A stretch of 64,000 bases of DNA from a virus. Numbering within the stretch: the first letter of the stretch is position 1; the number at the start of each line of letters is the position of its first letter. Both the position numbers and the translations under genes were made by a program. Positions 1-51,500 of this stretch are shown here, piece after piece. The notes beneath the pieces are model-generated. The model was given only the letters and a program-made list of their open reading frames with translations. It was not told the DNA's origin and made no database searches. The stretch spans positions 1 to 64,000 of the IMG/VR virus record IMGVR_UViG_3300034198_017889; one strand, written 5' to 3'.

Positions 1-80
1 ATAAAGAAAAGAAGCAAAAAGCAAGAAAAGACAAGCCAAAGGGCTATGAGGCTGTGCATAAGCAAGTTTCTGAGGAATAA
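1..80 (+). CDS. 3' end of an upstream gene (partial)
   Basis: Frame 3 reads KEKKQKARKDKPKGYEAVHKQVSEE to TAA at 78-80. Frame choice is uncertain. Confidence 0.35.
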   Translation, partial: KEKKQKARKDKPKGYEAVHKQVSEE

Positions 81-122: not shown

Positions 123-3110
123 ATGAAAGAGTACAAATTCGTGTTGGACCACGGAAAACTCAAAAAAGTCCCTAAGTCAGCCAAAGTAGATTATAAGATT
201 CCGAGCACCACGGACTTCTTCTCTCCTGTTACTAATCTTATTCCCTCCCTGAGTAGTGTATCAGGTGCTCGTGTACTTATCGGAGATAAGAGCTCATTAC
301 AGGCAATGACTCTGGTTAACAGAGAAGCTCCGTTAGTTCAGTCCAGTGAAAGTCAGGATCACTCAAGTTTTATTGAGGAGTACGGTAAGAAGCTTGTTAG
401 TGTTTCTTCCAAGATAGGAGGAGAAGTGACTAAGGTTACTCCTCATGAGATCGTTATTAAAGGCTCAGATGGAAAAGACACCTCTCATCCATTATATCAA
501 AACTATTTAGTAGGTAGGGAGAGCTATATTCATCATACTCCTCTAGTTTCGGTTGGTGACCATGTTAAAAAGGATGAAATGCTGGCTACCTCAAACTACT
601 CAGACAAGCATGGTCACCTTGCACTAGGCATGAACTTGAAAACTGCGGTTATGCCGTATAGATCATATAACTTTGAGGATGCCCTTGTTATTAGCCATGC
701 CGCAGCTCAGAAGTTAGTAGCCGAGCAGCTTATCCCGGTTAGACTAGAAGTTGCCAGAGGACTTGAAACTGGTAAAGATAAGTATATCTCCTTGTTTCCT
801 AACAAGTACTATAACGACCAGCTAGATAAGCTAGACTCTAGTGGAGTCGCCAAGAAAGGTCAGACTTTGAAAATGGGTGACCCTATTATATTAGCTTATC
901 AACCAAAAACGCTAAAGTCTCTTGAGATTCAGTTAGGTAAGTTGTCCAGAGCCCTTAAGAACGCGTATAGCGACGTTACTCATACCTGGGAATACGAGCA
1001 TGACGGCGAGGTTGTGGATGTTAATAACACAGGTAAACTTATCACTGTTACTATCAAAACTAGTCGACCTATGGCGCAGGGAGATAAGCTAAGTAATCCG
1101 TACGGAGCCAAAGGTGTTGTTAGAATTGTGTCAGATAGTGAGATGCCTCAAGGAGAGGATGGTAAACCTATTGATGTTCTACTTAACTCTATGAGTGTTA
1201 CTAGTCGTGTTGCTCCTGGGTTAATTACCACAATGGCCACAGGAAAGGTCGCCCAGAAGTTAGGCAAGATAATCAAAACTACGCCTTTTACTGATGGCTC
1301 TACTGTTGACCAAACTATCAAGCTATTAGCTCATCACGGAATCAAAGATACGGAGAGTCTCTACGACCCCACCTCTGGAAAACATATCGAAGTGTTTACG
1401 GGTCCTTCATACTATACTCGTCTCCACCATATCGCTGAAGACAAGATCTCTGCTCGTAGCGCTGGAACTACATACGATATTAACATGCAGCCCTCTAAGG
1501 CAGGTTCAGTAGAGAAGAGTAAACGCCTTGGAAACTTAGCTACCACTGTTGCACTGTCTAACGATGCTAAAGAAGTTTTGAAAGATGTAGCAGTTATCAG
1601 AAGCACAAAGAACGACGAGTTCTGGAATGCTATCAAGCTAGGGTACACCCCTCCACCACCTAAGGTTCCTTTTATCTTTAATAAGTTCATTTCTCACCTT
1701 GAAGGCTCAGGTGTTCATGTTCGCCAAGAGGGATCAAGATTTAATATCTTACCGCAGACTGACAGAGACATTGAAAAGAACAGCCAGGGAGAAATACATG
1801 AACCACTCACATACAAGCTTAAGGGTGGTGAGTTAGTAGCCGAGAATAATGGGTTATTTGATCCTGTTAACACCGGTATTTATGGTGATAACTACAATCA
1901 TATTGAGCTAGCCGTTAAGATCCCTAACCCAGTTAGTGAGGAACCACTACGTAAGATGATGGGTGTTACCAAAGCTAAGTTTGAGGAGCTCCTTGCTAGT
2001 GGTGAGTTAGAGAAGCAACTAAAGAAAGTCAATCTTGATGATAAGATCACAGAGCTTCGAGGATATATTAAATCTAATAAAAAGACCGGAAGAGACGACG
2101 CAGTTAAAGTCTTATCTTTCTTAACTATGCTAAAGAGAGAGAACTTAAAGCCTGGAGACTTACTCCTTTCTAAGGTTCCTGTTATTCCATCACAATACCG
2201 CCCGATTACAGCACAAGGTAATCAGATTATGAGTGCTGATGTTAACGAGCTCTATAAAGATCTTATGCTTGTTAACAAGTCTTTCAAGGGAATTGATGAA
2301 CATACACCGGTAGAGCTAACTGGTGAAGCTCGTAAAAAGTTATATGAGGGAGTAAAGGCAATCTATGGGTTAGGCGAGCCTATCTCTGTACGAAGCAAAG
2401 AAAAAGGCTTCAAAGGCTTATTAGCCACAACATTAGGAACCCAAGGAGGAAGTGCAAAGTCCTCAATGTTTCAGGCCAAGGTAGTTAATAAACCTATTGA
2501 TCTCGTTGGTCGTGGTGTTCTGGTTCCTGATGGTAACCTACAACTCAACCAGGCAGGCATACCTCAATCAATTCTTTGGAGTGTGTATAATCCATTCATA
2601 ATTCGTAGATTAGTCAGACAGGGTGTTCCTGCTACAAAAGCCAGAGATTACGTTAAAAGTAAGCATCCTTTGGCTGGTCAAGCCTTACAGGAAGAACTCT
2701 TAGACCGCCCAGGTATTATTACTCGTGATCCTCAGTTGTCTAAGTACAACTTCCAAGGATTCTACCTAAAAGCTAACCCGGACCCTAAGGACTTCTCTAT
2801 TAAGTTAAATCCCCTAGTGTTCAAGGGCTATGGTGCTGACTCTGATGGAGACCAGCTAAACGTACAGGTTCCCGCTAGCGACGAAGCTAAGGAAGAAGTC
2901 AAAGACAAGCTCTTTCCAGAGAAGAACTTAATATATCACAGAACATTCTCACCCATTTATACTCCTAGCAATGAGGCAGCTGTTGGCTTGTTCGCGGCTA
3001 GTTATGAAGATAAAAAGAATAAACCAACTCATTATACTAATGCTGACCAAGTTGTTTCTGATTTCTTGGCAGGCAAGCTTGACATAGGCGATAGGATAGA
3101 ATTATCTTAA
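123..3110 (+). CDS. rpoBC: Phage RNA polymerase catalytic subunit: C-half of beta fused to N-half of beta'
   Basis: Beta motifs: LIPSL..GARVLIG..QA..EAPLV, LALGMNL..MPYRSYNFEDA, GDKLSNPYGAKGVV, RLHHIAEDKISARS. Then beta' motifs: GLFDP..HIEL, VPVIPSQYRP, KPIDLVGRGVLV, RDPQL, NPLVFKGYGADSDGDQ. Confidence 0.93.
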   Translation: MKEYKFVLDHGKLKKVPKSAKVDYKIPSTTDFFSPVTNLIPSLSSVSGARVLIGDKSSLQAMTLVNREAPLVQSSESQDHSSFIEEYGKKLVSVSSKIGGEVTKVTPHEIVIKGSDGKDTSHPLYQNYLVGRESYIHHTPLVSVGDHVKKDEMLATSNYSDKHGHLALGMNLKTAVMPYRSYNFEDALVISHAAAQKLVAEQLIPVRLEVARGLETGKDKYISLFPNKYYNDQLDKLDSSGVAKKGQTLKMGDPIILAYQPKTLKSLEIQLGKLSRALKNAYSDVTHTWEYEHDGEVVDVNNTGKLITVTIKTSRPMAQGDKLSNPYGAKGVVRIVSDSEMPQGEDGKPIDVLLNSMSVTSRVAPGLITTMATGKVAQKLGKIIKTTPFTDGSTVDQTIKLLAHHGIKDTESLYDPTSGKHIEVFTGPSYYTRLHHIAEDKISARSAGTTYDINMQPSKAGSVEKSKRLGNLATTVALSNDAKEVLKDVAVIRSTKNDEFWNAIKLGYTPPPPKVPFIFNKFISHLEGSGVHVRQEGSRFNILPQTDRDIEKNSQGEIHEPLTYKLKGGELVAENNGLFDPVNTGIYGDNYNHIELAVKIPNPVSEEPLRKMMGVTKAKFEELLASGELEKQLKKVNLDDKITELRGYIKSNKKTGRDDAVKVLSFLTMLKRENLKPGDLLLSKVPVIPSQYRPITAQGNQIMSADVNELYKDLMLVNKSFKGIDEHTPVELTGEARKKLYEGVKAIYGLGEPISVRSKEKGFKGLLATTLGTQGGSAKSSMFQAKVVNKPIDLVGRGVLVPDGNLQLNQAGIPQSILWSVYNPFIIRRLVRQGVPATKARDYVKSKHPLAGQALQEELLDRPGIITRDPQLSKYNFQGFYLKANPDPKDFSIKLNPLVFKGYGADSDGDQLNVQVPASDEAKEEVKDKLFPEKNLIYHRTFSPIYTPSNEAAVGLFAASYEDKKNKPTHYTNADQVVSDFLAGKLDIGDRIELS

Positions 3111-3140
3111 AGCTTTATTAAACACTAAGTATAACATACA

Positions 3141-3341
3141 ATGATTGATGAAGAAATCTGGTCCAAGCTTTCTGCTGAAGAAAAACTGGCTGAACTCGAA
3201 AAGTACCTAAATGAGTTTAGACGGCTTGATTCGGGTGAGCACGAACTCAGAGGAACTTACCATGAAGGTAAAATAAAAACTTTAAAAACAGAGCTTAAGC
3301 AGAAAATAAACAAAATAATAGACTTGGAGTACATCAAATGA
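3141..3341 (+). CDS. Hypothetical protein (66 aa)
   Basis: ORF overlapping the next gene by ATGA; TATAAC just upstream. Confidence 0.65.
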   Translation: MIDEEIWSKLSAEEKLAELEKYLNEFRRLDSGEHELRGTYHEGKIKTLKTELKQKINKIIDLEYIK

Positions 3342-3958
3342 ATATCAGCAACCTAATCGAATCATATGATGCCTTGGTGAAGAAGGCATTCATACCCAAT
3401 CCCCAAGCTCAGCAAGAGCAGGGTCAACTTCAGCAGGCTCAGCAGCAGCTTATGCAGATTGTTCAGCAGCTTCCTCCTGAAGCCCAACAACAAGTTGGAC
3501 CTATGATTCAACAGCTACAACAGCTTCCACCTGAGCAGCAGCTCCAGCAGATCGGTCAGCTTACCCAGCAATTATCTCAAGGTGGACAACAACAACAAGA
3601 TCCATCCGCTCAAGGGGGTCAACCTCAGGATCCATCAGCACAGCGGCAGGATCAATCAGCACCAGCACAAGAGCAGGGAAACCTCAACGCCGAGAATAGC
3701 CTAGACAACACAAAGGTCACTCTCTCAGTACGTGAGCTTCTTGATCTCTCTAATGGTGGTAAAGCTACTCAGAGCTTGCTCAAGGTCAAGCAAATGGCCG
3801 AGGCCCACAATAAGAAAATGGAAGCAGCTCAGCAACAGCAGGACCAACAAGCAGCTCAACAGCAACAAGCACAACAGCAGCAATCCGCTATGGGTCAGGG
3901 TGGAATTTACTCCGCACCTATGGATGGCTCAGCCCCAATCGGAGCACCAGCCCAATGA
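3338..3958 (+). CDS. Gln-rich low-complexity protein, probable virion head protein
   Basis: Poly-Q/QP tracts; N-terminal LVKKAF (K-x-A motif). Confidence 0.75.
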   Translation: MNISNLIESYDALVKKAFIPNPQAQQEQGQLQQAQQQLMQIVQQLPPEAQQQVGPMIQQLQQLPPEQQLQQIGQLTQQLSQGGQQQQDPSAQGGQPQDPSAQRQDQSAPAQEQGNLNAENSLDNTKVTLSVRELLDLSNGGKATQSLLKVKQMAEAHNKKMEAAQQQQDQQAAQQQQAQQQQSAMGQGGIYSAPMDGSAPIGAPAQ

Positions 3959-4287
3959 ACTCATTAGAGAAGATTAGCTCATATTTATCTAGTTTTGGTC
4001 CAGAGGAGCAGAACTACGATTACGTTTGCTATATCAAGACAAAGCTTGCTGATATGCAGGCAACTCAGTCCACAGGTGAAACTAGTAATGAGGATGATCA
4101 GGAAAATACTGATGCCTCAAAAGTAGAAGTAGCCGAGCAAGATAAGTCACAAAAAAATTTAGAGGGTGAGCTGATGGATGGAGCATTTAGAGATCTTGAT
4201 GTTCTGAATGACATTGAAGACGATAAGGTTGTTAAGAAGGCTTCTCCGATTACTGATTTTTTAAGCAAGTTATCTAACAAAAAATAA
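3955..4287 (+). CDS. Acidic hypothetical protein with K-x-A motifs
   Basis: Translationally coupled ORF; KTKLAD and VKKASP motifs. Confidence 0.7.
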   Translation: MNSLEKISSYLSSFGPEEQNYDYVCYIKTKLADMQATQSTGETSNEDDQENTDASKVEVAEQDKSQKNLEGELMDGAFRDLDVLNDIEDDKVVKKASPITDFLSKLSNKK

Positions 4288-4290
4288 GTT

Positions 4291-6153
4291 ATGTCTGTTA
4301 CCACAGTTGGTCGTATACTTTTGAAGCAGTATACGCCTAAACACCTACACTCGCTAATAGACGACGAAGTTCTCGACAAGAAGGGAATTTCAATTTTGTT
4401 TAGTAAGCTTGTTGAACTAGAGCCAGATAATTATAGTAAGATTGCATCTGACTTAACTAGACTTGGATTTGAGATTGCCACGAGACAGGGTACCTCCATC
4501 ACTTTAAAAGATCTAGTTTCTCCTATTAATACTAAGGAGCTTTACGACAAGTTCGATGCCTTCCAGGTTAAGGTAAATAAGACTGATGATTCTCAGAATG
4601 TAAAAAATCAGAGAATCTTTGATAAATATAACACCATGATGGAGGATGTGAATAAGCACATTCTAGACGACGGACTTAAAACTAATAAGTCTCTTGCTAA
4701 GATCATACTTGCAGGCTCTAGAGGATCCCCAGCTCAGTACCGATCTACTATTGCTACTCAGGGTATTGTGGTGGATGCTGATGGTTTACCTAAGATGGAT
4801 ATTCCTGTTAAAAGCTCATTTGCTGAGGGACTTACTCTTCCTGAATACTTAGTAACATCTTTTGGTACGCGCTCAGGCGAAGTAGTTAAAAAGGTTGGTG
4901 TGGCACAAGGTGGATACTCTAGTAAGCAGTTCTCTAGAGCTTTGATGAATCTACAAATAACAGAGCATGACTGTGGAACTGCTAATGGAATATCTGTATC
5001 AACCACAGATAAGGATTCTGTCGGCGCTTATCTCGCTACTGCCATAGGAGGATATAAACGGAATAACGAGATCACTGCAAAAATGTTAAATGACCTGAAA
5101 GGTCAGAACATTGATAAAATCTTAATTCGTTCACCCATGACTTGCAGGGCCAGCAATAATAACCACTTTGGAGCGGTGTGTCAGTTATGCGTAGGTAAGC
5201 GCGAAAAGGGATTACCTGCCCCAGATAGTTATATTGGACTTGTTGCTGCTACTGCTGTTAGTGAACCTCTCACTGAGTATGCCATGAAATTAAGACATGG
5301 TGGAGGAGCAGCTACTAGCCTAGGTGGAGCAAGTGGTTTCAAGATGATTAACCAGCTTGCTAACATCCCTAAAACTTTCTTAAATAAAGCTCCTCTAGCT
5401 AAAGAGGATGGATATGTAACCCGTATCGCTCATGCAGCAGCAGGTGGTTACTTTATTGATGCAGGTACAGAAGAATATTATATTGGAGTTGGACAAGAAC
5501 CCAAAGTGAAGGTTGGTGACCATGTAGAGCAGGGAGATGTATTAAGCTCCGGCCTTGTTGATCCTAGTGAGGTTGTGCAATACAAAGGAATCGGAGAGGG
5601 GCGTAAATATTATGCACAAGCCATGAAGAGAGCCTTTGATGAGGGAAATCTTGGGGTTAACAGAAGAAACTTCGAACTGATCGCTAGATCTGCTATCGAC
5701 CATGTAAAAATTAATGATAACGATGGATTAGGTAATTTCTTACCTGACCAGATTGTTTCATACTCGGCACTAGAGAAGAGTTATGTTCCTAGAACAAACA
5801 GCAAAGATATTAGATCCGATTTGGCCTATGGAAAATATCTAGAGGCCCCCATACTACATTACACCATAGGTACCAGGGTCACTTCCTCTGTGATAGAGGC
5901 TCTTAAGGAGCAAGGAATTGAGTCTGTGCATGTTAACGACGACCCTCCACATTTCGAGCCTCACATGGTTCGACTTCTTGACGTTCCAGAGCATACAGAT
6001 GATTTCATGCATGTACTTTACAGTACCAACCTTGCAAAACGCTTTAGCAACGCCGTGAATGAGGGGGCGTCTTCTGATATTAATGGCCCTAGTCCTATAC
6101 CTGGATTAGCTTATGGTGTGGGGTTTGGAGAACACAGTAACTGGAAAGAGTAG
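4291..6153 (+). CDS. rpoC: Phage RNA polymerase beta' C-terminal half
   Basis: TTVGRILL, GFEIATRQG, GSRGS, SFAEGL..EY (bridge-helix region), EHDCGT, RSPMTC..CQLC (Zn site), EPLTEYAMKLRHGGG (trigger loop), sandwich-barrel hybrid region. Confidence 0.92.
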   Translation: MSVTTVGRILLKQYTPKHLHSLIDDEVLDKKGISILFSKLVELEPDNYSKIASDLTRLGFEIATRQGTSITLKDLVSPINTKELYDKFDAFQVKVNKTDDSQNVKNQRIFDKYNTMMEDVNKHILDDGLKTNKSLAKIILAGSRGSPAQYRSTIATQGIVVDADGLPKMDIPVKSSFAEGLTLPEYLVTSFGTRSGEVVKKVGVAQGGYSSKQFSRALMNLQITEHDCGTANGISVSTTDKDSVGAYLATAIGGYKRNNEITAKMLNDLKGQNIDKILIRSPMTCRASNNNHFGAVCQLCVGKREKGLPAPDSYIGLVAATAVSEPLTEYAMKLRHGGGAATSLGGASGFKMINQLANIPKTFLNKAPLAKEDGYVTRIAHAAAGGYFIDAGTEEYYIGVGQEPKVKVGDHVEQGDVLSSGLVDPSEVVQYKGIGEGRKYYAQAMKRAFDEGNLGVNRRNFELIARSAIDHVKINDNDGLGNFLPDQIVSYSALEKSYVPRTNSKDIRSDLAYGKYLEAPILHYTIGTRVTSSVIEALKEQGIESVHVNDDPPHFEPHMVRLLDVPEHTDDFMHVLYSTNLAKRFSNAVNEGASSDINGPSPIPGLAYGVGFGEHSNWKE

Positions 6154-13303: not shown

Positions 13304-14548
13304 ATGCCAAACGAACCTATCTCATTTCAACAAGAAATCGACACACCAGGGGCAGGAACTGATTCTGAACTGTATAGGGCGGTATCTCCGTTGCTTGATT
13401 TAAACCGTATTCCAGAGTCTAAAAATAATTTTGATAGAGCCCGCATTGATAAGCTCAAGGAAGATTTACGTAAAGGTACGCTTGGATTAGAATATCTCAC
13501 AGGCCTAAAGAGCAACAAAGCTGAGACTTTTTACGATAACCACAAAGCTCAGGCTGTTACATCAGATGTATTAGCTAACTCGGGTGGAATAGGTTTAGGT
13601 GTTGGCGCAGGCAGCGCAGCTTTAAACTTCGCTCGTCAACGCGCAAACCTTCTTAAGACTGTACCTAAACATGACGCAAGACGAGGAGACGCAGTTCAAC
13701 GGATGGAGACAAAGCTGTCACCTATAGATCCTAAAGACGGAAGAGCTTTACCTGTTACAGATAACGATGCTTTGCGTATGTTTGGAGATACTTCACCAGG
13801 TACGACGGCAGCTCCAGCAAGTATTGATAATGTTATTAAGAGGGTTGAAAGCCTTGATGATATTGCTGCTGTTAAGGGAGATAAAGGTCCAAAGCCTTAT
13901 AAAGCGCAGCTTGAAAAAATTATAGGAGACGGAAAAGCATTAACGCCAGAACAGATCAAAGAGCTTACACCATTTTTAAGTAGCCTGCGAGGCACATCTG
14001 AGCACGGAACTTTAGGCCAATACGCGGAGCTTCATAAAGATCTTTTAGCTCATGGTAATAGCTTTAAAGCCCCGATGGGTGCCTCTTTAGGTGATAAATT
14101 TTATTCGAGTAGCTTAGGAGATAAGATGCAGCATTTACCTCAGGCTGTTCAAAACATAATTCATTCTCTTGTTCCACACAGCTTTAAGGGTCACGAAGAT
14201 TTAATTAATAAACATATTACTTCACATAATCCCAACGGTGTGAGTCCAGCACTATTGAGAAAAGTTCTAACCGACACAGGCTTAGACGAGGAGCAAATTA
14301 AGGTTGTTGAAAATGGTTTACTTTCCCGGCTTAAAAATCCAGCTAGTAGAAAATCTTATAGTAAGATACTCGAACATGTTGGGCGTCCTGCTCTTATTGG
14401 TGGGGGAATCGCCGCAGGTGGATTAGGTTTAAGCCATGTACTAAAAGCCCTGCAGGGTCAGGTATATGGTAAAGAAAAGATTAATGATTGGAAGCGTAAT
14501 ACTCTTCGCTCACGTGGTGAGTTTGAGGAGGCAAACAGAATTCAATAA
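13304..14548 (+). CDS. Putative virion protein with two glycine-zipper hydrophobic segments
   Basis: GGIGLGVGAGSAAL and ALIGGGIAAGGLGL flank a soluble region. Confidence 0.7.
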   Translation: MPNEPISFQQEIDTPGAGTDSELYRAVSPLLDLNRIPESKNNFDRARIDKLKEDLRKGTLGLEYLTGLKSNKAETFYDNHKAQAVTSDVLANSGGIGLGVGAGSAALNFARQRANLLKTVPKHDARRGDAVQRMETKLSPIDPKDGRALPVTDNDALRMFGDTSPGTTAAPASIDNVIKRVESLDDIAAVKGDKGPKPYKAQLEKIIGDGKALTPEQIKELTPFLSSLRGTSEHGTLGQYAELHKDLLAHGNSFKAPMGASLGDKFYSSSLGDKMQHLPQAVQNIIHSLVPHSFKGHEDLINKHITSHNPNGVSPALLRKVLTDTGLDEEQIKVVENGLLSRLKNPASRKSYSKILEHVGRPALIGGGIAAGGLGLSHVLKALQGQVYGKEKINDWKRNTLRSRGEFEEANRIQ

Positions 14549-15978
14549 TGATTAAATTCAACTCCACTAGCGATTGGAACTTTGATGTTCCTCCTGTTAA
14601 CATTGTAAACGAGGGAGCAGACTTGAAGAAACTAGCTGCTGTACATGATGAGCTTAAAGTAGAGAAGACTGCTAATCAAACTGACGTTCACGTTATTGCT
14701 TTAGGCTCATACGAGGGAATTGGTCAAAACAGAAACGGCGATCTATTCAAAGAAGCTGAATGCTTAGAACACTATAAGACCTTCATTCGCTCTGGTAAAA
14801 AAGGTAAGGATGGAAAATATGATGGAAGAGCCTTAAACCGCCACCACAAGAATAAACCAGAAGACCCTAAGTACGGCAATATCAAAGCCGCTGCTTATAA
14901 TCCTGATATGAAGCGCATAGAGCTGATCGTTGGATTAGACAATGATAAATGTGCTGAGGAAATTCAAAAGCTTTCCAAGGGCGATCAAATCAATGTATCA
15001 ATGGCTGCCAAGGTAGCTAGTGACGTTTGCACCTGGTGTGGTCATAACGCCAAGGATGATAGAGGGCGTTGCGAGCATGTGCCTAACCAGATCGGTGAAT
15101 TAAATAAGCGTGGTGAAATGTGCGGAATGGATAACATTGATCCTCACTGGTTTGAGCTATCAATTGTTGGTAGACCTGCTGATCGTATTGGTATGTCTCT
15201 CAAGCTTGCCTCAACCTATGCCCCGCAATTAACATCTGACTATCTTAAGATCTATTCTGACTTTAATGCTCCTTGTGATGTTCAAGACTTCCTTATTTCT
15301 AAGAAAGCTAGCGACAAGAGAAGCTTAGTAAGTAAGTTAGCTGAGATGGAAAAGCACCTTGAAGGAATAGCCACAAAGGGACCTAAAGATTCTAGCGAGA
15401 AGTATATTTCTAACGAGGCATCTAAAATCAATCATTCAGAGGGATTATCTGAGGAGACAATTGATGAGCTTAGAAAGCAGGACCCCAGCAAGCTATTAAA
15501 AGCATTAGCAGATAAGGGAATTGTTTTTTCTCCAGCTGACTTTGTTAAATATCTGTTTGGCGATAAGCTAGCAGATAATAAGATTATTGATAAGATGAAG
15601 AAACGTCTACCTTCAGGTTTCTCCCATATGGAAGAGGATGAAGACAAGGAAAACTCAGCTGTGAACAGTGAGCGTTTTGACCCTCAAGATTTAGGAATGC
15701 TGCCTCGTGAAATTAAATCGCTTGTCAGTGGGTTGTTTGATGGGCATTCTTTATTTGATCACCCTGCCCATGGAAGAGTAATGCGTATTACTATCATCAA
15801 GAATATTCCTGGTGGTTTAAAAGCAACTCCCCATAAGGAAGAGATCGAAAAAGATGCAGCTGCAGACGAACTAGCTGAGCAATACTTAAGCTATAAGTTA
15901 GCTGCATTACGATATATGGATGAGTGTGGAAAGTTAGATAATCAAACTATCTTGAACGCATTGATACAGAATCGTTAA
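14548..15978 (+). CDS. Prohead maturation protease (HK97/herpes-assemblin fold) with Cys/His insertion and C-terminal extension
   Basis: NRNGDLF, catalytic-type His (RHHKN), VSMA nucleophile motif, FELSIVGRPAD; CTWC..CEH..C insertion; lies upstream of scaffold and capsid genes. Confidence 0.8.
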   Translation: MIKFNSTSDWNFDVPPVNIVNEGADLKKLAAVHDELKVEKTANQTDVHVIALGSYEGIGQNRNGDLFKEAECLEHYKTFIRSGKKGKDGKYDGRALNRHHKNKPEDPKYGNIKAAAYNPDMKRIELIVGLDNDKCAEEIQKLSKGDQINVSMAAKVASDVCTWCGHNAKDDRGRCEHVPNQIGELNKRGEMCGMDNIDPHWFELSIVGRPADRIGMSLKLASTYAPQLTSDYLKIYSDFNAPCDVQDFLISKKASDKRSLVSKLAEMEKHLEGIATKGPKDSSEKYISNEASKINHSEGLSEETIDELRKQDPSKLLKALADKGIVFSPADFVKYLFGDKLADNKIIDKMKKRLPSGFSHMEEDEDKENSAVNSERFDPQDLGMLPREIKSLVSGLFDGHSLFDHPAHGRVMRITIIKNIPGGLKATPHKEEIEKDAAADELAEQYLSYKLAALRYMDECGKLDNQTILNALIQNR

Positions 15979-36987: not shown

Positions 36988-37620
36988 ATGAATAACTCAA
37001 TAAATAAACTATTAGATGAGCATAAAAAACTCATAGAGTCTGAGGCTAAGAAATATAGTACGAATATTCCTCTCATAACTGCACAGATTGAGGCATACAA
37101 ATTAGCCAGGCAGGCTGCTGAATCATATTCACCATCTGTTGGTAAATTCAGCACCCACCTAGTAAATAACCTTAAGAAGCTTTCAAGACTATCAACCCAG
37201 TATGGCAGCTCAATACGTCTCCCAGAGAACACACAGTTTGGGATAAATAAGATAAACCAAGTAGAGAAGCAATTAGAAAGTGAGTTTGGCAGGTCTCCCA
37301 CAACGGCAGAGATAGCCGACTATGCGGGGATGAATATAAAGATGGTGGACAGTCTACTTAAAAACAAAAGGTCTATTATTTCTTTTACGAATATGCTGGA
37401 AACCCCCACCATCATGGACAGCTCTAATGATGAGTGGGCTACTTTTGTTTATCATGACCTAGCGCCTAGAGATAAATTAATTTTTGAACACATGACTGGA
37501 TTTGGTGGTAAAAAAATAATCGAGTCTGACAAGATAGCTAAGAAATTAAAAATCACTCAACCTCAGATAAACCAAAGAATTAAAATCATTGGAGACATGC
37601 TCAACAAGGGCTGGAAATAA
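36988..37620 (+). CDS. Sigma-70 family sigma factor (regions 2, 3, 4; FliA/SigF-like size)
   Basis: AAESYSPSVGKFSTHL (region 2), IRLP..LESEFGRSPTTAEIAD (region 3), LAPRDKLIF..IAKKLKITQPQINQ (region 4). Confidence 0.88.
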   Translation: MNNSINKLLDEHKKLIESEAKKYSTNIPLITAQIEAYKLARQAAESYSPSVGKFSTHLVNNLKKLSRLSTQYGSSIRLPENTQFGINKINQVEKQLESEFGRSPTTAEIADYAGMNIKMVDSLLKNKRSIISFTNMLETPTIMDSSNDEWATFVYHDLAPRDKLIFEHMTGFGGKKIIESDKIAKKLKITQPQINQRIKIIGDMLNKGWK

Positions 37621-38531: not shown

Positions 38532-40145
38532 ATGAGTGAACCAGTACAATCAACCGCAGATAGGTTAACTACCTTTATAGCTAATAATTACAGCAATGCT
38601 GATACCTCTCCAGGATCAGTAATAAGTGAGCTTGTGGTTAAGCTGGCTGCGTCACTACAGAATGCTCAATACAACACAATAGTAGGTATTTCACAGAGCT
38701 CTGCAATCAGTCAAGCACTCGACTCCACAACAGACACTTATTCTAACCAAATAGACTTAATTGCTTCTAATTACAACACCTCAAGAAGTGAAGGAAGGTA
38801 TTCCACGGGTAATATACAAGTAAGGGTTTCTTCACAGAACACCTACAACATAGGCGCAACCCTACAATTCACCCAACCTGCATTAGGTTTAACATACAAG
38901 GTGAACAAGCAATTCAAGGTATCGCCCACACCAGATCTTAACCTAGGGGAGCTTCAACTATTTAGTGAGAATGGTCAGTACTACTTTATACTTCCGGTTA
39001 CCGCCACAGAAGTAGGAACAACCTCACAGGTTTCCTCAGGAACCACATTCTCTGTATTACGCCCTAGCTCAATCTCTAGCTTTGTATCCGCCAAGGCTTA
39101 TGGCAACTTTACATCAGGCCTCCCAAAAGAAACCGACAAGCAATTAATATCTAAATTTAAAAATACTCTAGGTAGTAGCCGGTTTGAATCCCCCGCAGGC
39201 ATGGCCAACAGACTATCTAAAGATTACCCTACATTTCAGACACTCTCAATCTGTGGAGCTAATGACCTAGAGATGACAAGATCAAAGCAGAATGCCTTAG
39301 GAATTTCAACCTTTGGTATGGCAGATGTTTACGTAAGAAACTCAGTAGGACCAGAGACATACAGCACAGCAGTACCAGCCACAAAGACCGGACCCGGAGT
39401 TTGGGAATTAAACTTAGATTCTTCATACTGTGCAGGATTTTACAACGTTTTCTCTATCATACCCAACACCTCAAAGTTAACTGGTGGTACTCTTCCTATC
39501 ACAAACACATCTTTTAGCTACAGACTTTTTACCGATACTAAAAACAATGTAATTACCTCCGCATCCGATGCCAGGTTCTCTAAATACCAAACAGCCAAGA
39601 TCGTATTTACGTATAATGAAGCGCCTGAACTTGAAGTTGGTTCAACGGCGAGTTTTATAGTTTCAGCAAACTATCAACCAAACATCGGAGATATCCAGGA
39701 TCTCATCACATCTAGCGACGAGCGTTTAGCTTGTGCGGACTATCTTGTGAAAGCTGCTCTTCCTTGCTTTGTATCACTAAATATCCCCCTGGTTCTTAAA
39801 AACCCCAACGACACATACGACTCACTCAAGCTCAACAATCTTAAGCAGGAAATATTCAATTACGTTAACACCATCCCCTTCGGAGATGACCTGTATGCAT
39901 CTAAAATTATAACAATTTGTCATAACTACAATATCTCTAGAGTTGATCTACCTATAACTTTAAAAGGTAATATTTTATGCAATGACGGAACCTCTATAAA
40001 CATCGTTGATAATGACTATTTAAAAATACCTACCAATATCCCGGTAGGTGTTTCACCCAAGACTACTCAATTTTTTATAAACTACTACGACACCTCTATA
40101 GGTGGAACAAACGTACTAGATAATATAGGTCTTGAATTACGATAA
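38532..40145 (+). CDS. Baseplate J/gp6-like wedge protein
   Basis: SPGSVISEL, IDLIASNY..R..STG, ATEVG, FTSGLPKETDKQL, GMADVYV motifs. Confidence 0.85.
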   Translation: MSEPVQSTADRLTTFIANNYSNADTSPGSVISELVVKLAASLQNAQYNTIVGISQSSAISQALDSTTDTYSNQIDLIASNYNTSRSEGRYSTGNIQVRVSSQNTYNIGATLQFTQPALGLTYKVNKQFKVSPTPDLNLGELQLFSENGQYYFILPVTATEVGTTSQVSSGTTFSVLRPSSISSFVSAKAYGNFTSGLPKETDKQLISKFKNTLGSSRFESPAGMANRLSKDYPTFQTLSICGANDLEMTRSKQNALGISTFGMADVYVRNSVGPETYSTAVPATKTGPGVWELNLDSSYCAGFYNVFSIIPNTSKLTGGTLPITNTSFSYRLFTDTKNNVITSASDARFSKYQTAKIVFTYNEAPELEVGSTASFIVSANYQPNIGDIQDLITSSDERLACADYLVKAALPCFVSLNIPLVLKNPNDTYDSLKLNNLKQEIFNYVNTIPFGDDLYASKIITICHNYNISRVDLPITLKGNILCNDGTSINIVDNDYLKIPTNIPVGVSPKTTQFFINYYDTSIGGTNVLDNIGLELR

Positions 40146-45588: not shown

Positions 45589-48500
45589 ATGCCTGCACTA
45601 GAGTATCTAAGTGGAAACAGTTTAATCTCTTACCCGTTCAAAGATGGGAGAGCCGTTAATTCTTATCTACCTTTAGGAGATGATACATTTCTCGACGCTC
45701 TTTTCGTGATTAGTGGTGAAGTCGGAATTTCACGACCATATATAAGCCACATCTCAACAGCTCAGAGTGTTATAACCTTCGAGCTTAGTGACGTTGTTGG
45801 TGGTTTATTCGGTGTAGTTGAACTTCCAACTAGCTCAGCAGTAAACCACCTTGATAGTGTGGGGGATAATTTTTTCCATGTAACCAACTCCACTTGGTCG
45901 GCTAAGTTTGTATTTGGTCCGGGAATTTTTGAACTACATACTCCAGGTATAAACATACAATTCACCCCGGACGAGACTGAGTTCTCGCCGTCTGTAGTAA
46001 TTCACACTGTACCTATGGTGACTGCTCTTAATTTTGAATCATACCATAATGACGGTACACTCGCAGCACAAACACCCGAGGCTGTTCATATATACTCACC
46101 CGGTGAAGAGGCCAAGATGACCAACGGGTCTAATAATGTTTTTAATTTCTTGTCTCCTGAGACTATGTATCTAGATATACAGCGAGGAGCAGGAACAGGA
46201 TTACATGACCCATGCGCCTCTGGAAATATCACCGATATTTACAGTATTAATAGAATCACTCCGGACAGCCAGGGTAGTATGTTTTTCTCTGCATCTGATT
46301 GCTACTCTATGGAGCTTCTTACGTATAATGACACTCAACTATACAGCTTCATACCAGATATCGCTAGCCGATATGGAGACTTTGCAACACCTATACCCCA
46401 GATAGGAAATACCCCTGGATATACCCAGTATTTTAATGCTATTGCTCCTGAGATGGGTGGTCACGGCCTTGTGATGCAGAACCACTGCCAACCAAAATGT
46501 CCCCCGCAAAATTTAAACGCTTTTGCTGAATATCTTAACCGAGTTACTGATGGAGCAGCTGAATTATATAAGTTTGTAAGTAATTCATATGAAACATATG
46601 GAACAGGTACGTTATCAGGTGATATTTTCACGGTAGAAGTATTCTGCGGTACAACTCTTCCAGATAACTGGGTTTCAGGTGTATGTAGTGGATCTTTTAC
46701 AAAATACTTCCACGAGGGCAAAACACTGCAAATTAGATATGACTCAACCACAATAAAGTCATACAAAATTTTGGATGTTCTTAGTAATAGTGCTGTAAGA
46801 CTAAATCTTGAAGCTACAAACCCACCCACCATTAATGTTTCCGGACCAGCACCATTTAAAATCTTAGAGCTTGGTATAAAAAATAAGCTAAATTCGGCCA
46901 TTCTTACTAACAATGAAAAGCTTCTTACAAAAAATGTACCATCTATAGATATTAACTACGGAACAGTTGAGGCATACAACGCAGTTAAGGATTACGGAAC
47001 ATTCATAACGGCTATTGTTGTTATTTATAACCCCACCCCAGCACCACTTAACTTTTCAGTGAGCTGGGACACAAACAATATTACGAAAGTCGTGCCTAGC
47101 TCAATAAAAACTAAAACCAGTTCTGGTGTGATTAGTTATGGTGGCACCGTAGGAATTATAAATTGCAAAGACTACGCAACTTTTGAGGCAATCTTCTTCA
47201 TACCATGCTCAACTTCCGAAAATAGTCCTAACGAGGGAAGCGTAACTTTCAATGTACTGAATACCGCCGATAATCTAGACCTGGAGAATTCACCCAAATC
47301 AGTAATGGCAACCGCCGCGACATGCGTATCTGCGGACCAAGCTATAATTTATGTAAAAGCTTTAGAGGGTGCACCTTTCTCATATTATCTACCAGTTGGT
47401 CCTGGTGTTACTTCCTTATCGTTTTCGGGAAATGCGCCCAATTGGCTAACCTTTGATAACTCAATCACACCAGGAGCAGGCAATCTACACGGAACTCCCA
47501 CAGGAAGCGTAAGTGGGTCATACACGATAAGCGCAGGAATAAACTCAGCTGGTGGATCAACAGCACAAACCATTGTGCTTACGTACGTGGCTAAACCTAG
47601 GATTGTGTACCCTGAGGATTCTTCTACCATACAGATCTACCCACCAGACACAAATAGCAGAACATACACAGAGGGAGCCCCACTCACACCTATAGTGGCC
47701 ACAAATTCACCGAGCGGTTACTCTATAGTGGGTGCGCCTCTAGGGCTAAGACAAGTAGGAAATGGGCTTATCGGTCAGATAACCCTAGGATCAAATCCCA
47801 CCTTCCCAATTAACTATGTGCTCACCATGTCTGCCTCTAACGAGGCCGGTGAATCTCTACCGGTTACGGTTAATCTGGAATTAACCAATGTACCTATATC
47901 CACACCTGCGGCCACATATGGAACACAATTTTGCTATTCTATTATATCCGGGCCAGAGGTGTTATCTCAGTCTGTTATCACGTCACTACCTAATTGGCTA
48001 TCATTTAATCCGGCCGTAAACCTAGTCTCAAGTACCACTCCCCCAGTATGTTCCCTATCCGGGATGAATACATCATACTCAGGAAAACCAGAGATAGTTA
48101 TAGTTAGACAAAATCTTAAAGGTGGAAGCTACAGATTAGTACAATATATAATTCCATACTCATCAATTCCCAACATAACATACCCAACACCAGGGGCAAT
48201 ATTCAACGTATACCCACCTAACTTTGTTAATAGTGGCGACGGCGCTACCGTGTTCACCGCAGCATACCCGCTATTAAAGGTATACTCCACGAACACCACA
48301 ACGTCATTTAACGCCACCGGATTACCCTTAGGGCTATCTATAGATAACTCTGGTAATATAGTTGGAAAAATTACCTCAGGAGCGGGAATATACAGCACCA
48401 CAATTACCGCCACAAATTCAGTTGGCACATCTCCTCCGGTTACTTTTAGTTTTGATCTTTTAGACCAAGTACCCACTATTAACGCATATCAAGGAAAAGC

Positions 48501-51500
48501 TTTCTGTTATAAATTTCCTATACTTAATAACGCCAGCTCCTTCTCTATCTCTGGGGATATTCCACCATGGCTGACTGTTTCATCAAGTGTTAACACATCA
48601 TGCCATATCAGCTCGGCTAAATTGAGTCAACCGCAAAGTCAGAGTTACAATTTGCTAGTTAGTGCCGACATCAACAAAGCAAACATATCTCAAGCGCAGA
48701 TCATTAATTATGTAGCTCTCCCGAAAATTTCTTATCCTACCTCAGGCCAAGTTATAAACCTAACAGCTGCAGATTACCAAAATATATTATTCACTACCGA
48801 TTTCCCACTGGCAACAATCATAGCTTCTAACTCCCCAACCTCTTACTCCGCCTCCGGCTTACCTACCGGACTATCAATTACGCCGAATGGGAAAATCATA
48901 GGAAAAACATCAGCAACAGCTGGTGATTATGATGTTGTATTAACTGCCACCAATGGTGCAGGCAGCGAATCCATTTCTGTAACTTTTCATATATCCAGTT
49001 CCGGAATTAGGGATTTAGCTTTCCCGAATATGCCTTACTGCTACAAGATCGCGGGATTTGGGGCGGTAGATCGTTACGAATATTCAGGAACCCTACCAGA
49101 CTGGTTAACTTTTGATGGAAGCCCTACCGCACTGTGTAATTTATATGGAACAGGCACAGGTACCACCGGCGAGGTTTATGATTTAACGCTAACGGGCTAC
49201 AATGGAACCAGCTCTACATCCCTGCCGTACACATTGAGTTATGCTATTACTCCCACCATAACATATCCCATTGCTGGGTCCATATTCACAATTACTCCAC
49301 CAGACTACAACAGTAAGGTGTTCACATTGAATTCACCCCTCTTCAAGGTTACGGCGACTAATAACCCAACCACATTTAGAGCCACAGGTTTCCCATCTAA
49401 TACATTCAGTATAGATCCAGCCACAGGGTCTATTATAGGTTCCACCAGAACCGTGACCACCAACACACCAACACCCATAACAATAACCGCAGTCAATGCC
49501 GCTGGAACATCTGAGTCTATCACAGTTTATTTGGTTGTGAGTTCCACAAGTCAAACACTAGGCATAGACGGATCAACAGGTGAAGTTTGTTCATTATTAA
49601 GTTTAGCTGATAATCCAACCGGACTAACTTTGACAGGCTTACCGTCTTGGCTTACGTTCAGCTACCCCGCCGTTAATAATTGCAACATTTCTGGAACCAT
49701 TCCCACCGGTCAGGTATCAACACAATCATTTACTGCACAGTTAACGAGAATTTATGGAACTGGATCTACCGTCCAGAATTTATTAATTAGTATTACACGA
49801 CCACCTGTAATTACTTCTCCAGATCAAAACATCTACGATATAGCTCCGCCTGATTTTAATAGCAGAATATACACCACGCTATTACCACTATTAACAGTTC
49901 AAGCCACTAACAACCCGACGAGCTTTAGCGCCACAGGGCTTCCTCCGGGATTAACTATAAATTCTTCAGGTAGAGTAATTGGTGGACCCGTTACAGTGGT
50001 AGGTGATTATGCTGTGAGTATAACAGCCACAAATTCGGTAGGCTCATCATCAACAGCCCTATGCACAATATCAGTTACTAACAGCATAAAAAACATCACG
50101 GTGGCAAGAGAAACAGCGATATGTGAAAAGATCATTACCGCCGACGGTGCCACGGTTTACTCCACTGTCGGTAAGTTACCATCAGGAATATCCTTTAATG
50201 GCTCTCCAAATATTAACTGCAATTTTTCGGGGACTCCATTGGTAAGTAACCCTGTGGGTGTGTACCCGATTAATATAACTAGTAAATATCTTGGAGGATC
50301 TAGCACCAGCACTACGAATTTAAACCTAATAGCTGTACCTAAGATAACTTACCCGATCAGCTCAGCCATATTTAAAATATACCCACCAGACTTCACCGCT
50401 GTATCTGGGGATTCAACAACATTCACTGCGGGATACCCACTACTTACTGTACTAGCCACGAACTCACCCATTTCCTTCTCAGCTACTGGATTACCATCAG
50501 GATTAACCATAGATAACTCCGGAAATATAGTTGGAAAAATTACCTCAGGGGTTGGAACATTCAATGTTTCAGTTATTGCAACAAACTCAGTAGGTACATC
50601 TTCAGCATTATCATTTAGTTTATCTCTAGTCAACACAGTTCCAATTATCAGCGCATACCAGGGTAAGGATCTCTGCTATAAGTTTCCAATTCTAAGTAAT
50701 GCTACCGCGTATTCATTATCTGGTGATGTTCCACCCTGGGTTACGGTTAATACATCCGCCAGTGCAGCCTGCCACATTAGTGCAACAAATCCATCTTTAA
50801 ACGCTAGCACCACTTATGAGCTTGTATTGAGCACTGTGATTGGTGGCGCAAATATCAAGCAAAGCCAAGTTATTAAATACACTGCATCGCCGAAGATAAG
50901 CTCACCACAGGCTAATTTGGTAGTTAGCGTATCTGACTTAATAACTTTCACAGAAAACTATCCAGCTGTGGCTGTTTTTGCATCTAACTCCCCAACTTTA
51001 TACTCCTGCACCCCAGGATTACCAGCAGGATTAAGTATCACAAAAACAGGCAAAGTTATAGGTAAAGTGGGTGCGACGGCAGGTAATCATAATGTAGCAA
51101 TATCAGCTACTAATGCAGCCGGTAGTGACTCTGTTGTTGTAACTTTTAATGTTGTGCGAAGTTCAAATAACACGCTGTCTTCAGCTGCTATATTTGGAGA
51201 ATCTTATTGTTTCAAGATTCAAGGTATGGGGACCGCAACTAGCTACGGGTACTCAGGAACACTACCAGAGTGGTTAACATTTAATAGTGATGTTGGTGCA
51301 ACCTGTAATTTATATGGAACAGCAACAGGGCTAACTAATGAAATCTATAATATAACATTAATAGGCTACTATGGAGATTCATCGGTATCCTATAACTTCA
51401 GTTTGCAGTATTCAGCCAAGCCAACTATAACTTATCCAATTGCTGGATCTGTATTTACAATTACTCCCCCAGACTACAAAAGCAAGACATTCACGCTAAC

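Follow-up and report, generated by a model that had tools for sequence, protein, structure and literature searches.

The polymerase genes of the window

The stretch of DNA analysed here (the window, 64,000 nucleotides) comprises the first 64 kb of the 103,844-base IMG/VR record IMGVR_UViG_3300034198_017889, a linear contig that is ~53% complete and derives from an uncultured phage of lake water with a genome of ~200 kb. At its start lie two genes for parts of a multisubunit RNA polymerase (RNAP). The first is an open reading frame (ORF) at nt 123..3110 whose product of 995 amino acids (aa), P0001, joins the C-terminal half of the beta subunit (aa 1 to ~550) to the N-terminal half of beta-prime (~aa 552-995). 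The second, at nt 4291..6153, encodes the C-terminal half of beta-prime (620 aa). Both are on the plus strand, to which all coordinates of genes and motifs within and between them refer. In our reading, to which we give a probability of about 0.8, both belong to a set of four genes with which the phage specifies a multisubunit RNAP of the bacterial type; the reading includes the assembly of the enzyme, its use of a sigma factor, its packaging and an origin in two steps.

ORF 123-3110 is one open frame with a stop codon 9 nt 5' of its ATG. A first-pass annotation, made from the sequence alone, had this frame start in mid-beta and run through both catalytic barrels, and had proposed a scan with hidden Markov models of the beta and beta-prime domains. 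That scan gave the expected matches: on P0001, Pfam Rpb2_6 at aa 97-459 (E 5.2e-57), Rpb1_1 at aa 667-740 and Rpb1_2 at aa 856-927 (E 9e-14), and on the 620-aa chain Rpb1_5. Structure alignments and motif positions agree with this assignment. Residues 20-534 of P0001 align to positions 628-1157 of a bacterial beta chain of 1250 aa (8i23_C, E 4e-45), and residues 605-993 to positions 174-561 of a beta-prime chain of 1188 aa (8i23_D, E 1e-34). An AlphaFold2 model of P0001 has a mean predicted local distance difference test score (pLDDT) of 77, and Foldseek searches with it returned bacterial beta chains on top (E 1e-34). The chain is of the bacterial type and not phiKZ-like, as had been supposed: its score is 157 bits against a bacterial beta chain, compared with no more than 75 bits for any PHROG family that bears the label 'RNA polymerase beta subunit', and within PHROG it matches best to two full-length families without annotation. 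By contrast, the proposed capture of a bacterial rpoBC stays conjectural, identity to bacterial enzymes in structural alignments being only 22-26%.

The motifs of the active centre are well preserved. The beta double-psi barrel contains the active-site motif GDKLSNPYGAKG (nt 1080-1115), which aligns to bacterial GDKMAGRHGNKG and carries both lysines, K322 and K330, invariant across 58 sequences. The catalytic Asp triad of the beta-prime double-psi barrel is found in GADSDGD (nt 2832-2852; aa 904-910), the counterpart of bacterial NADFDGD, with glycine instead of asparagine before the triad; D906, D908 and G909 are invariant in the same 58 sequences and D910 is kept in at least 90% of the rows. 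Since beta-C is joined directly to beta-prime-N, a covalent tether links the barrel with the lysines to the one whose Asp triad binds Mg. Further upstream, alignment to 8i23_C places a beta fork or conserved block, FSPVTNLIPSLSSVSGARVLIGD, at nt 219-287, which reads LIPSLSSVSGARVLIGD where the bacterial counterpart is IPFLE(H/N)DDANRALMG. Also retained, in agreement with the first-pass annotation, are two sigma-binding elements, both of which align structurally to their bacterial counterparts: the beta flap-tip helix KTLKSLEIQLGKLSRALKN (nt 906-962) and the coiled coil of the beta-prime clamp helices (nt 2232-2369). In bacterial RNAP the flap tip is the docking site of sigma region 4 and the clamp helices are the main docking site of sigma region 2.

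The junction between beta and beta-prime

The junction segment (nt 1668..1931) begins with the C-terminal end of beta, PFIFNKFISHLEGSGVHV (nt 1668-1721), followed by ~50 aa containing the motifs GLFDP and HIEL. The junction point itself falls at about nt 1720-1750, inside the interval of about 1700-1800 that had been predicted, and in a profile of 58 homologues the beta match extends to ~aa 550 while the beta-prime match starts from ~aa 602. Compared by eye, GLFDP and HIEL are equivalent to the pair of motifs between which the N-terminal Cys4 zinc ribbon of bacterial beta-prime lies. The ~50-aa stretch thus looks like a beta-prime N-terminus minus its zinc ribbon, an assignment that depends on these two motifs; nt 1722-2000 searched alone against the PDB gave no match. 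There is not a single cysteine in P0001, and therefore a Cys4 zinc ribbon is certainly absent.

Column identity across the junction (0.65-0.72) is at the level of the catalytic domains. Relative to three close relatives, non-synonymous difference in this region is 0.08-0.16 whereas synonymous sites are saturated (0.80-0.88), and the region is under purifying selection. In the AlphaFold2 model it forms strands and a helix with pLDDT values of 70-91, which suggests a structured segment and no loose linker.

One might ask whether the 995-aa product is merely a precursor that is cut near the junction, such that mature beta-C and beta-prime-N are separate polypeptides. A candidate protease is available in the same module, namely a head maturation protease homologue (nt 14548-15978, plus strand; phrog_18299, E 8e-8), and packaged head proteins of large phages are often processed. 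Yet the conservation of the junction and its predicted fold make such cleavage very unlikely. In bacterial RNAP the C-terminal end of beta and the N-terminal start of beta-prime adjoin, so that a tether requires no cutting, and RpoBC of Helicobacter is a natural fusion.

Given that the window is a single metagenomic contig, 53% complete, one might also suspect that the fusion is an artefact of assembly or sequencing, or that the gene is a pseudogene in decay. However, 12 related IMG/VR contigs (67-86% identity) have an uninterrupted ORF of 995-1009 aa at this position, and among 5.8 billion proteins searched there were at least 120 clusters of ~990-1000 aa (53-95% identity; sources JGI, ENA, NCBI and Logan), all of which carry PF00562, PF04997 and PF00623 together. 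Independent contigs from four lake or freshwater runs, belonging to four studies, cross nt 1373-1945 gap-free, and across 6.2 kb length varies at one place only, nt 3829, where contigs of two lake runs have six extra nucleotides (CAGCAA) in frame within a glutamine-rich ORF. The public runs listed as containing the sequence include no RNA run. Neither the ORFs of the relatives nor the bridging contigs contain a stop or frameshift at the junction. Together with the invariance of the catalytic residues and the low ratio of non-synonymous to synonymous change, these results refute the artefact and pseudogene explanations, to which we give practically no chance. A 2146-aa open frame in one relative (G004) was itself dismissed as a read-through artefact, the ORF listing showing an arrangement of 1001 plus 616 aa.

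The other chains of the enzyme

The remainder of beta-prime resides, as had been noted, in ORF 4291-6153. Its product starts with MSVTTVGR, residue 3 corresponding to residue 571 of E. coli beta-prime, and matches Pfam Rpb1_5 (E 1e-15). In PDB alignments it corresponds to T. thermophilus beta-prime 914-1129 and 1179-1395. This chain carries the bridge helix (nt 4819-4944), the second zinc site with four cysteines (nt 4966-5196) and the trigger loop (nt 5236-5307), whose histidine is retained.

Three genes separate the two RNAP genes. They encode a helical protein of 66 aa (nt 3141..3341), found at the same place and with the same length in 10 relatives (41-88% identity), a conserved glutamine-rich low-complexity protein of 206 aa (nt 3338..3958; 198-313 aa in relatives), and an acidic 110-aa protein (nt 3955..4287) that is likewise conserved in the clade. 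None of the three has a Pfam or PHROG family match, and none resembles the small ORFs at the same place in the cultured phages Arash and D69 (see below); they are specific to the clade of the window. A mobile insertion of the homing endonuclease or intron type was considered and rejected, all three genes being conserved clade-wide.

No match to the N-terminal part of beta (beta-N) was found anywhere in the 104-kb contig of the window, since only 122 nt of sequence precede the fused gene. They include the 3' end of another ORF (nt 3..80, plus strand), which is cut by the contig start and whose 25 lysine-rich codons are no RNAP piece; in relatives, small ORFs of 108-157 aa lie directly 5' of the fused gene. 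Four relatives (G001-G004, three of them at least 90% complete) were more informative. In these, two small ORFs match the N-terminal 480 residues of gp206, the fused chain of Salmonella phage Arash, with E values of 1e-17 to 1e-24. Beta-N1 (218-226 aa) matches gp206 residues 10-250 and lies ~8 kb upstream on the opposite strand, and beta-N2 (237-260 aa) matches residues 232-472 and lies ~15 kb upstream on the same strand. Beta-N1 maps to about residues 60-210 of bacterial beta and beta-N2, which includes Rpb2_3, to residues 404-597 of E. coli beta; the beta lobe between these stretches is mostly without counterpart. The fork and rifampicin-pocket region is located on beta-N2.

The order postulated in the first-pass annotation, beta-N followed by beta-C plus beta-prime-N and then beta-prime-C, is thereby supported by genes of the relatives. 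Its statement that beta-N and alpha are missing from the window also stands, with the addition that beta-N exists in relatives as two upstream genes. The term 'single-chain catalytic core', however, was an overstatement, as the bridge helix and trigger loop are on beta-prime-C and the fork and rifampicin-pocket region is on beta-N2. Because beta-N is encoded by two genes in the relatives and the window shows two more, the enzyme of this clade would consist of four polypeptides specified by scattered genes. Each RNAP region gave one match per genome, including those that are at least 90% complete, which indicates a single RNAP set.

The alpha models PF01000 (RNA_pol_A_bac) and PF01193 (RNA_pol_L) had no match at E≤0.1 in the contig of the window or in the four relatives, and the same models matched in 14 of 14 control genomes. 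Of the features of a bacterial-type core, the lysine barrel, the Mg-binding DxDGD barrel, the bridge helix, the trigger loop and the sigma-docking surfaces are present, whereas the N-terminal Cys4 zinc ribbon of beta-prime is absent and an alpha-dimer platform was not found with these two models.

Distribution and origin of the fusion

The natural beta/beta-prime fusion defines a widespread, very large and almost unstudied family of phage proteins. Among cultured phages the nearest are Salmonella phage Arash and Vibrio phages D69, D148 and D181, which show 31-32% identity to P0001 over 94-98% of its length. An unbroken alignment across the junction connects P0001 with Arash gp206 (1525 aa; OQ632216; 32% identity over 98%) and with D69_0261 (1527 aa), the start of P0001 corresponding to about residue 483 of gp206. 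Like the window, these phages have the C-terminal end of beta joined to the start of beta-prime and the same split after the beta-prime barrel, with a separate beta-prime-C chain of ~606 aa (Arash gp216, D69 _0264) that is 26-29% identical to that of the window. Arash and D69 also have head-module genes syntenic with those of the window, and the neighbourhoods examined in these two phages each contain an annotated sigma-factor gene. Unlike P0001, gp206 and D69_0261 possess ~480 additional N-terminal residues (Rpb2_2, Rpb2_3), so that all of beta is on the chain, while in the clade of the window beta-N has been split off as two relocated genes. On their 5' side, the fused genes of Arash and D69 are adjoined and overlapped by short genes for proteins of 92-97 aa, gp205 (L031, 13284-13562) and D69_0260 (L040, 10278-10571), which look alike by eye (motifs PGM.PA and IGG.D.D); a counterpart 5' of the gene in the window was not seen.

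When 1.84 billion representatives were searched exhaustively with HMMER, 1496 matched at E≤1e-30, a number that may include cellular beta and beta-prime; the best 150 of these are all fused phage chains. The junction is spanned in 152 of 152 representatives, and in all but two of them the C-terminal end lies within ~25 aa of that of P0001 (150/152). Beta-N is part of the fused chain in 121 of the 152, is lacking in 26 and is intermediate in 5. At the C-terminal side P0244 stops ~72 aa short, and two sisters without beta-N, P0239 (1818 aa) and P0249 (1264 aa), run 813 and 270 aa past the end of P0001. In the small clade that these two form, beta-prime may continue undivided beyond the barrel.

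In a family tree (FastTree, 979 columns, midpoint root, family members only) the 12-row group of the window is uniformly without beta-N, and a branch of length 0.51, with a Shimodaira-Hasegawa support of 100, sets it apart from all other members. Other forms without beta-N are scattered, and at least seven changes are forced. This pattern suggests that both the fusion and the split of beta-prime go far back and characterize the family as a whole, and that loss of beta-N from the chain would be derived in the clade of the window, the polarity being conditional because the root is a midpoint only. The first-pass annotation had the subunits fused and then re-split. Fusion and splits are both seen, but the ancestral state looks like a whole beta joined to beta-prime-N, from which beta-N was split off later.

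In more than half of the 152 representatives the chain is interrupted between one and three times by insertions of 140-700 aa, for which the same sites are used repeatedly (P0001 aa 112-142, 180-199, 324, 363, 439-461, 585-593, 772-834, 907-919 and 938-963). Among the insert-bearing homologues are P0020, P0031, P0079, P0091, P0119 and many of P0126-P0271. Two of the sites interrupt active-site motifs, aa 324 being inside the lysine motif and aa 907-919 inside the Asp triad, and we count this choice of sites, along with the invariant catalytic residues, as evidence of retained function. P0020, which has an insert at aa 324, gave a Pfam LAGLIDADG homing-endonuclease match and P0091, with an insert at aa 907-919, both intein-splicing and LAGLIDADG matches, and judging from these domains at least some inserts at the active-site motifs are inteins. 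The fused gene of the window carries none of the large inserts of the family.

A candidate sigma factor

A sigma-like protein of 210 aa is encoded at nt 36988..37620 (plus strand) in the tail and baseplate gene block. It matches Sigma70_r3 (E 7.5e-12, above the cut-off) and phrog_351, 'RNA polymerase sigma factor' (E 1.2e-12), and its gene is conserved in all five genomes searched. We consider it the probable initiation factor of the phage polymerase. For a predicted complex with residues 540-995 of the fused chain the interface score ipSAE was 0.79 as opposed to 0.00 for the best of three controls; the mark applied to this score was reached by 58 of 80 solved complexes and by 2 of 110 mismatched pairs. 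The runs agreed in at least 60% of contacts with a pLDDT of 75-77 for the partner, and the predicted contacts place sigma residues 24-41 on the clamp helices (fused chain aa 695-757). As complexes of sigma with beta-prime have already been solved, this result may reflect likeness to known holoenzymes and is no proof of binding.

Alternatively, the sigma-like protein may act on the core polymerase of the host in the manner of T4 gp55 and SPO1 gp28, the phage enzyme using another factor or none. Many phages devoid of an RNAP encode sigma factors that redirect the host enzyme (PMC7824862), and phage RNAPs of the phiKZ type work without sigma (PMC7824862, PMC7598289). On the other hand, the flap-tip helix and the clamp helices have been kept on the phage chain, the predicted complex involves precisely the clamp helices (with the reservation made above), and in Arash a sigma factor is present in virions beside the RNAP chains. 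An exclusive role on the host polymerase thus appears unlikely to us.

Comparison with known RNA polymerases

Full-length RpoBC fusions of ~2900 aa are known from Helicobacter and Wolbachia, where they are part of cellular, alpha2-containing enzymes and have an intact zinc ribbon. The phage chain shares with them the covalent end-to-start joining of beta and beta-prime but differs in being trimmed at both ends, in lacking the zinc ribbon and in that no alpha was found.

RNAPs of the phiKZ/AR9 type are devoid of alpha and multiply split, beta-prime being cut after the Asp-triad barrel; beta-C and beta-prime-N are separate, there is no sigma, and of two paralogous sets (virion and non-virion) one is packaged (PMC7598289, PMC7824862). 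The enzyme of the clade described here is similar in that it is phage-encoded, comes without a detected alpha and has split chains with the same cut after the barrel, but it differs by its single RNAP set, the fusion and the accompanying sigma-like gene. Sigma use would be new for a phage multisubunit RNAP, given that the phiKZ/AR9 type has none.

The multisubunit-RNAP-encoding Caudovirales (mReC) are likewise uncultured tailed phages of aquatic and other habitats whose RNAPs were found with cellular beta and beta-prime models. They encode separate beta (~960-1365 aa) and beta-prime (~900-1200 aa) proteins, the class having been defined by separate proteins of at least 800 aa each with the motif NADxDGD (Weinheimer and Aylward 2020, PMC7481178). 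Since the mReC genes are separate, we rejected an assignment of the window's group to mReC; the present genes form a fusion whose motif reads GADSDGD, and none of the contigs of this clade that were fetched occurs in the mReC RNAP list (PMC7481178). Single-chain two-barrel RNAPs such as crAss-like gp66, YonO and the tape-measure-fused enzyme of P23-45 also carry both barrels on one polypeptide, and some are delivered by the virion. Profiles of beta and beta-prime barely or never detect them (PMC7481178), whereas P0001 matches a Pfam beta domain with an E value of 5e-57 and still needs further beta and beta-prime chains.

The closest analogue by topology, as judged from its description, is the RNAP of the yeast cytoplasmic virus-like element pGKL2, in which K2ORF6p fuses beta with part of beta-prime, K2ORF7p carries the C-terminal beta-prime regions and alpha is absent (PMC6211774). 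The authors called this fusion unique and placed the enzyme near poxvirus and eukaryotic RNAPs (PMC6211774). It lacks most of the clamp (beta-prime a1-a10), has an archaea-like split between a15 and a16 and includes a small subunit of 132 aa (PMC6211774). For the yeast enzyme the tether was found to be necessary. The phage enzyme, which resembles those of bacteria, retains the clamp helices, and its split comes immediately behind the barrel.

As to previous descriptions of the phage fusion, the first-pass annotation had left open whether the arrangement was already characterized. GenBank already holds the fused gene of cultured phages (Arash gp206, VPHD69_0261), annotated 'subunit beta' or 'hypothetical protein', but a literature search for beta/beta-prime fusions in phages found no paper that discusses it. 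The Arash paper annotates gp206 as 'subunit beta' and gp216 as 'beta-prime' and does not mention the fusion (PMC10585845), and a candidate for a prior description, the 'moraphage' paper (PMC12619734), was discarded as it concerns phages without RNAP. Several family members are labelled 'biotin carboxyl carrier protein' by JGI, presumably a systematic mis-annotation caused by the hybrid-motif flap domain.

Proposed function and packaging in the virion

Multisubunit RNAPs are usually pictured as enzymes in which an alpha dimer holds beta and beta-prime together. Here, both barrels are tethered on one chain, no alpha was found, the first zinc ribbon is gone and the other parts are distributed over three genes, while the sigma-docking surfaces and a sigma-like gene are retained in spite of the rearranged chains. 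We propose that the 995-aa chain, in which the C-terminal half of beta continues directly into the N-terminal third of beta-prime, would be complemented by the 620-aa chain, bringing in what remains of beta-prime, including its bridge helix and trigger loop, and by beta-N1 and beta-N2, providing the beta protrusion and fork. The four chains would assemble into an active core, in which the tether between beta and beta-prime partly substitutes for the alpha dimer during assembly. The sigma-like protein would then bind to the clamp helices and the flap tip and steer the enzyme to phage promoters. By analogy with the distant relative Arash, the enzyme may be packed in the virion and injected, and might thus start transcription independently of the host. 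As for the origin, neighbouring genes for beta and beta-prime would have been joined by read-through long ago and beta-prime cut behind its barrel, both changes being shared across the family, and fission of beta-N would have followed later in the clade of the window.

Within this fused-RNAP family, presence in the virion is known for Arash only, by mass spectrometry. Of all Arash virion proteins gp206 had the most spectra (3516), compared with 1333 for the major capsid protein, 1210 for gp216 (beta-prime-C) and 467 for the sigma factor gp10 (PMC10585845). It is nevertheless conceivable that the polymerase is real but not packaged, being made after infection for middle or late genes while the host RNAP, perhaps with the phage sigma factor, serves the early ones. 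The window itself shows nothing on packaging, the Arash authors themselves point out that abundant infection-phase enzymes could contaminate virion preparations (PMC10585845), and there is one RNAP set per genome, whereas the phiKZ type has separate virion and non-virion enzymes (PMC7598289). Yet carry-over is hard to invoke for a chain whose spectra outnumber those of the major capsid protein, and in all three lineages the RNAP genes are located in the head-gene block on the same strand. In our judgement an enzyme that stays out of the virion is improbable, and we favour its packaging.

Several points weigh against the four-chain, packaged, sigma-dependent enzyme proposed here. The absence of alpha rests on two Pfam models, and a divergent alpha- or omega-like protein may exist, for instance among the products of the genes at nt 3141-4287. 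The beta-N genes lie off the contig, so the four-gene set is seen in relatives only. It is just as conceivable that the sigma-like protein redirects the RNAP of the host, and the complex prediction does not distinguish between the two cases. The polarity of fusion and fission is argued from the majority state and from the contiguous beta of bacteria, on a midpoint-rooted FastTree without outgroup. That the enzyme of this clade is active, assembles as proposed and is packaged is in each case a deduction, and Arash, from which packaging is extrapolated, is only 32% identical, has a different beta-N layout and has virion data that are open to contamination.

It is tempting to go further and to regard the family as a natural sigma-dependent RNAP of the bacterial type that dispenses with alpha, uses the tether in place of the alpha platform and travels in the capsid together with its sigma factor, thus being host-independent from the first minute. 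We put this forward only tentatively, as something rather less probable than its opposite. If true, a widespread group of phages with genomes of ~150-300 kb outside the phiKZ lineage would transcribe independently of the host, and the repeated re-cutting of the chains (fission of beta-N; the apparently unsplit beta-prime in P0239) would reveal the covalent connections that an RNAP with two barrels cannot do without. As the family includes cultured phages of Salmonella and Vibrio, assembly, promoter recognition and virion delivery are amenable to experimental tests.

Gene neighbourhood and minor observations

In the first 60 kb of the window every large ORF is on the plus strand. This block contains the head maturation protease homologue described above, a baseplate wedge subunit (nt 38532-40145, plus strand) and the sigma-like gene. 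Because these genes follow on the same strand, both RNAP genes of the window stand at the head of a virion-structure block.

The 5' flank of the fused gene (nt 85-122) contains a small hairpin, TAGCC...GGCTA, followed by TGCTAGAAT 6 nt 5' of the ATG, an arrangement kept in the three nearest relatives. As a phage promoter motif TGCTAGAAT is not enriched, with 14 matches in the window against 22.6 expected. A longer pattern built on it had 12 matches against 6.3 expected, but 3 of 100 shuffles scored as high and no promoter is claimed. A scan of the window for sigma-70-type promoters was at background (9 versus 11.7 expected).

Towards the end of the window, ARAGORN located a transfer-messenger RNA gene (nt 63136-63570) with an unusually long tag peptide, ANSNEMLAPSLAEADAILNQFGYADRELLAA. 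An ORF at nt 45589-57237 encodes a protein of 3882 aa with many immunoglobulin-like repeats (He_PIG, E 5e-68 in 8 stretches; PKD; CFAP65-type immunoglobulin domain), probably a giant fibre or decoration protein.

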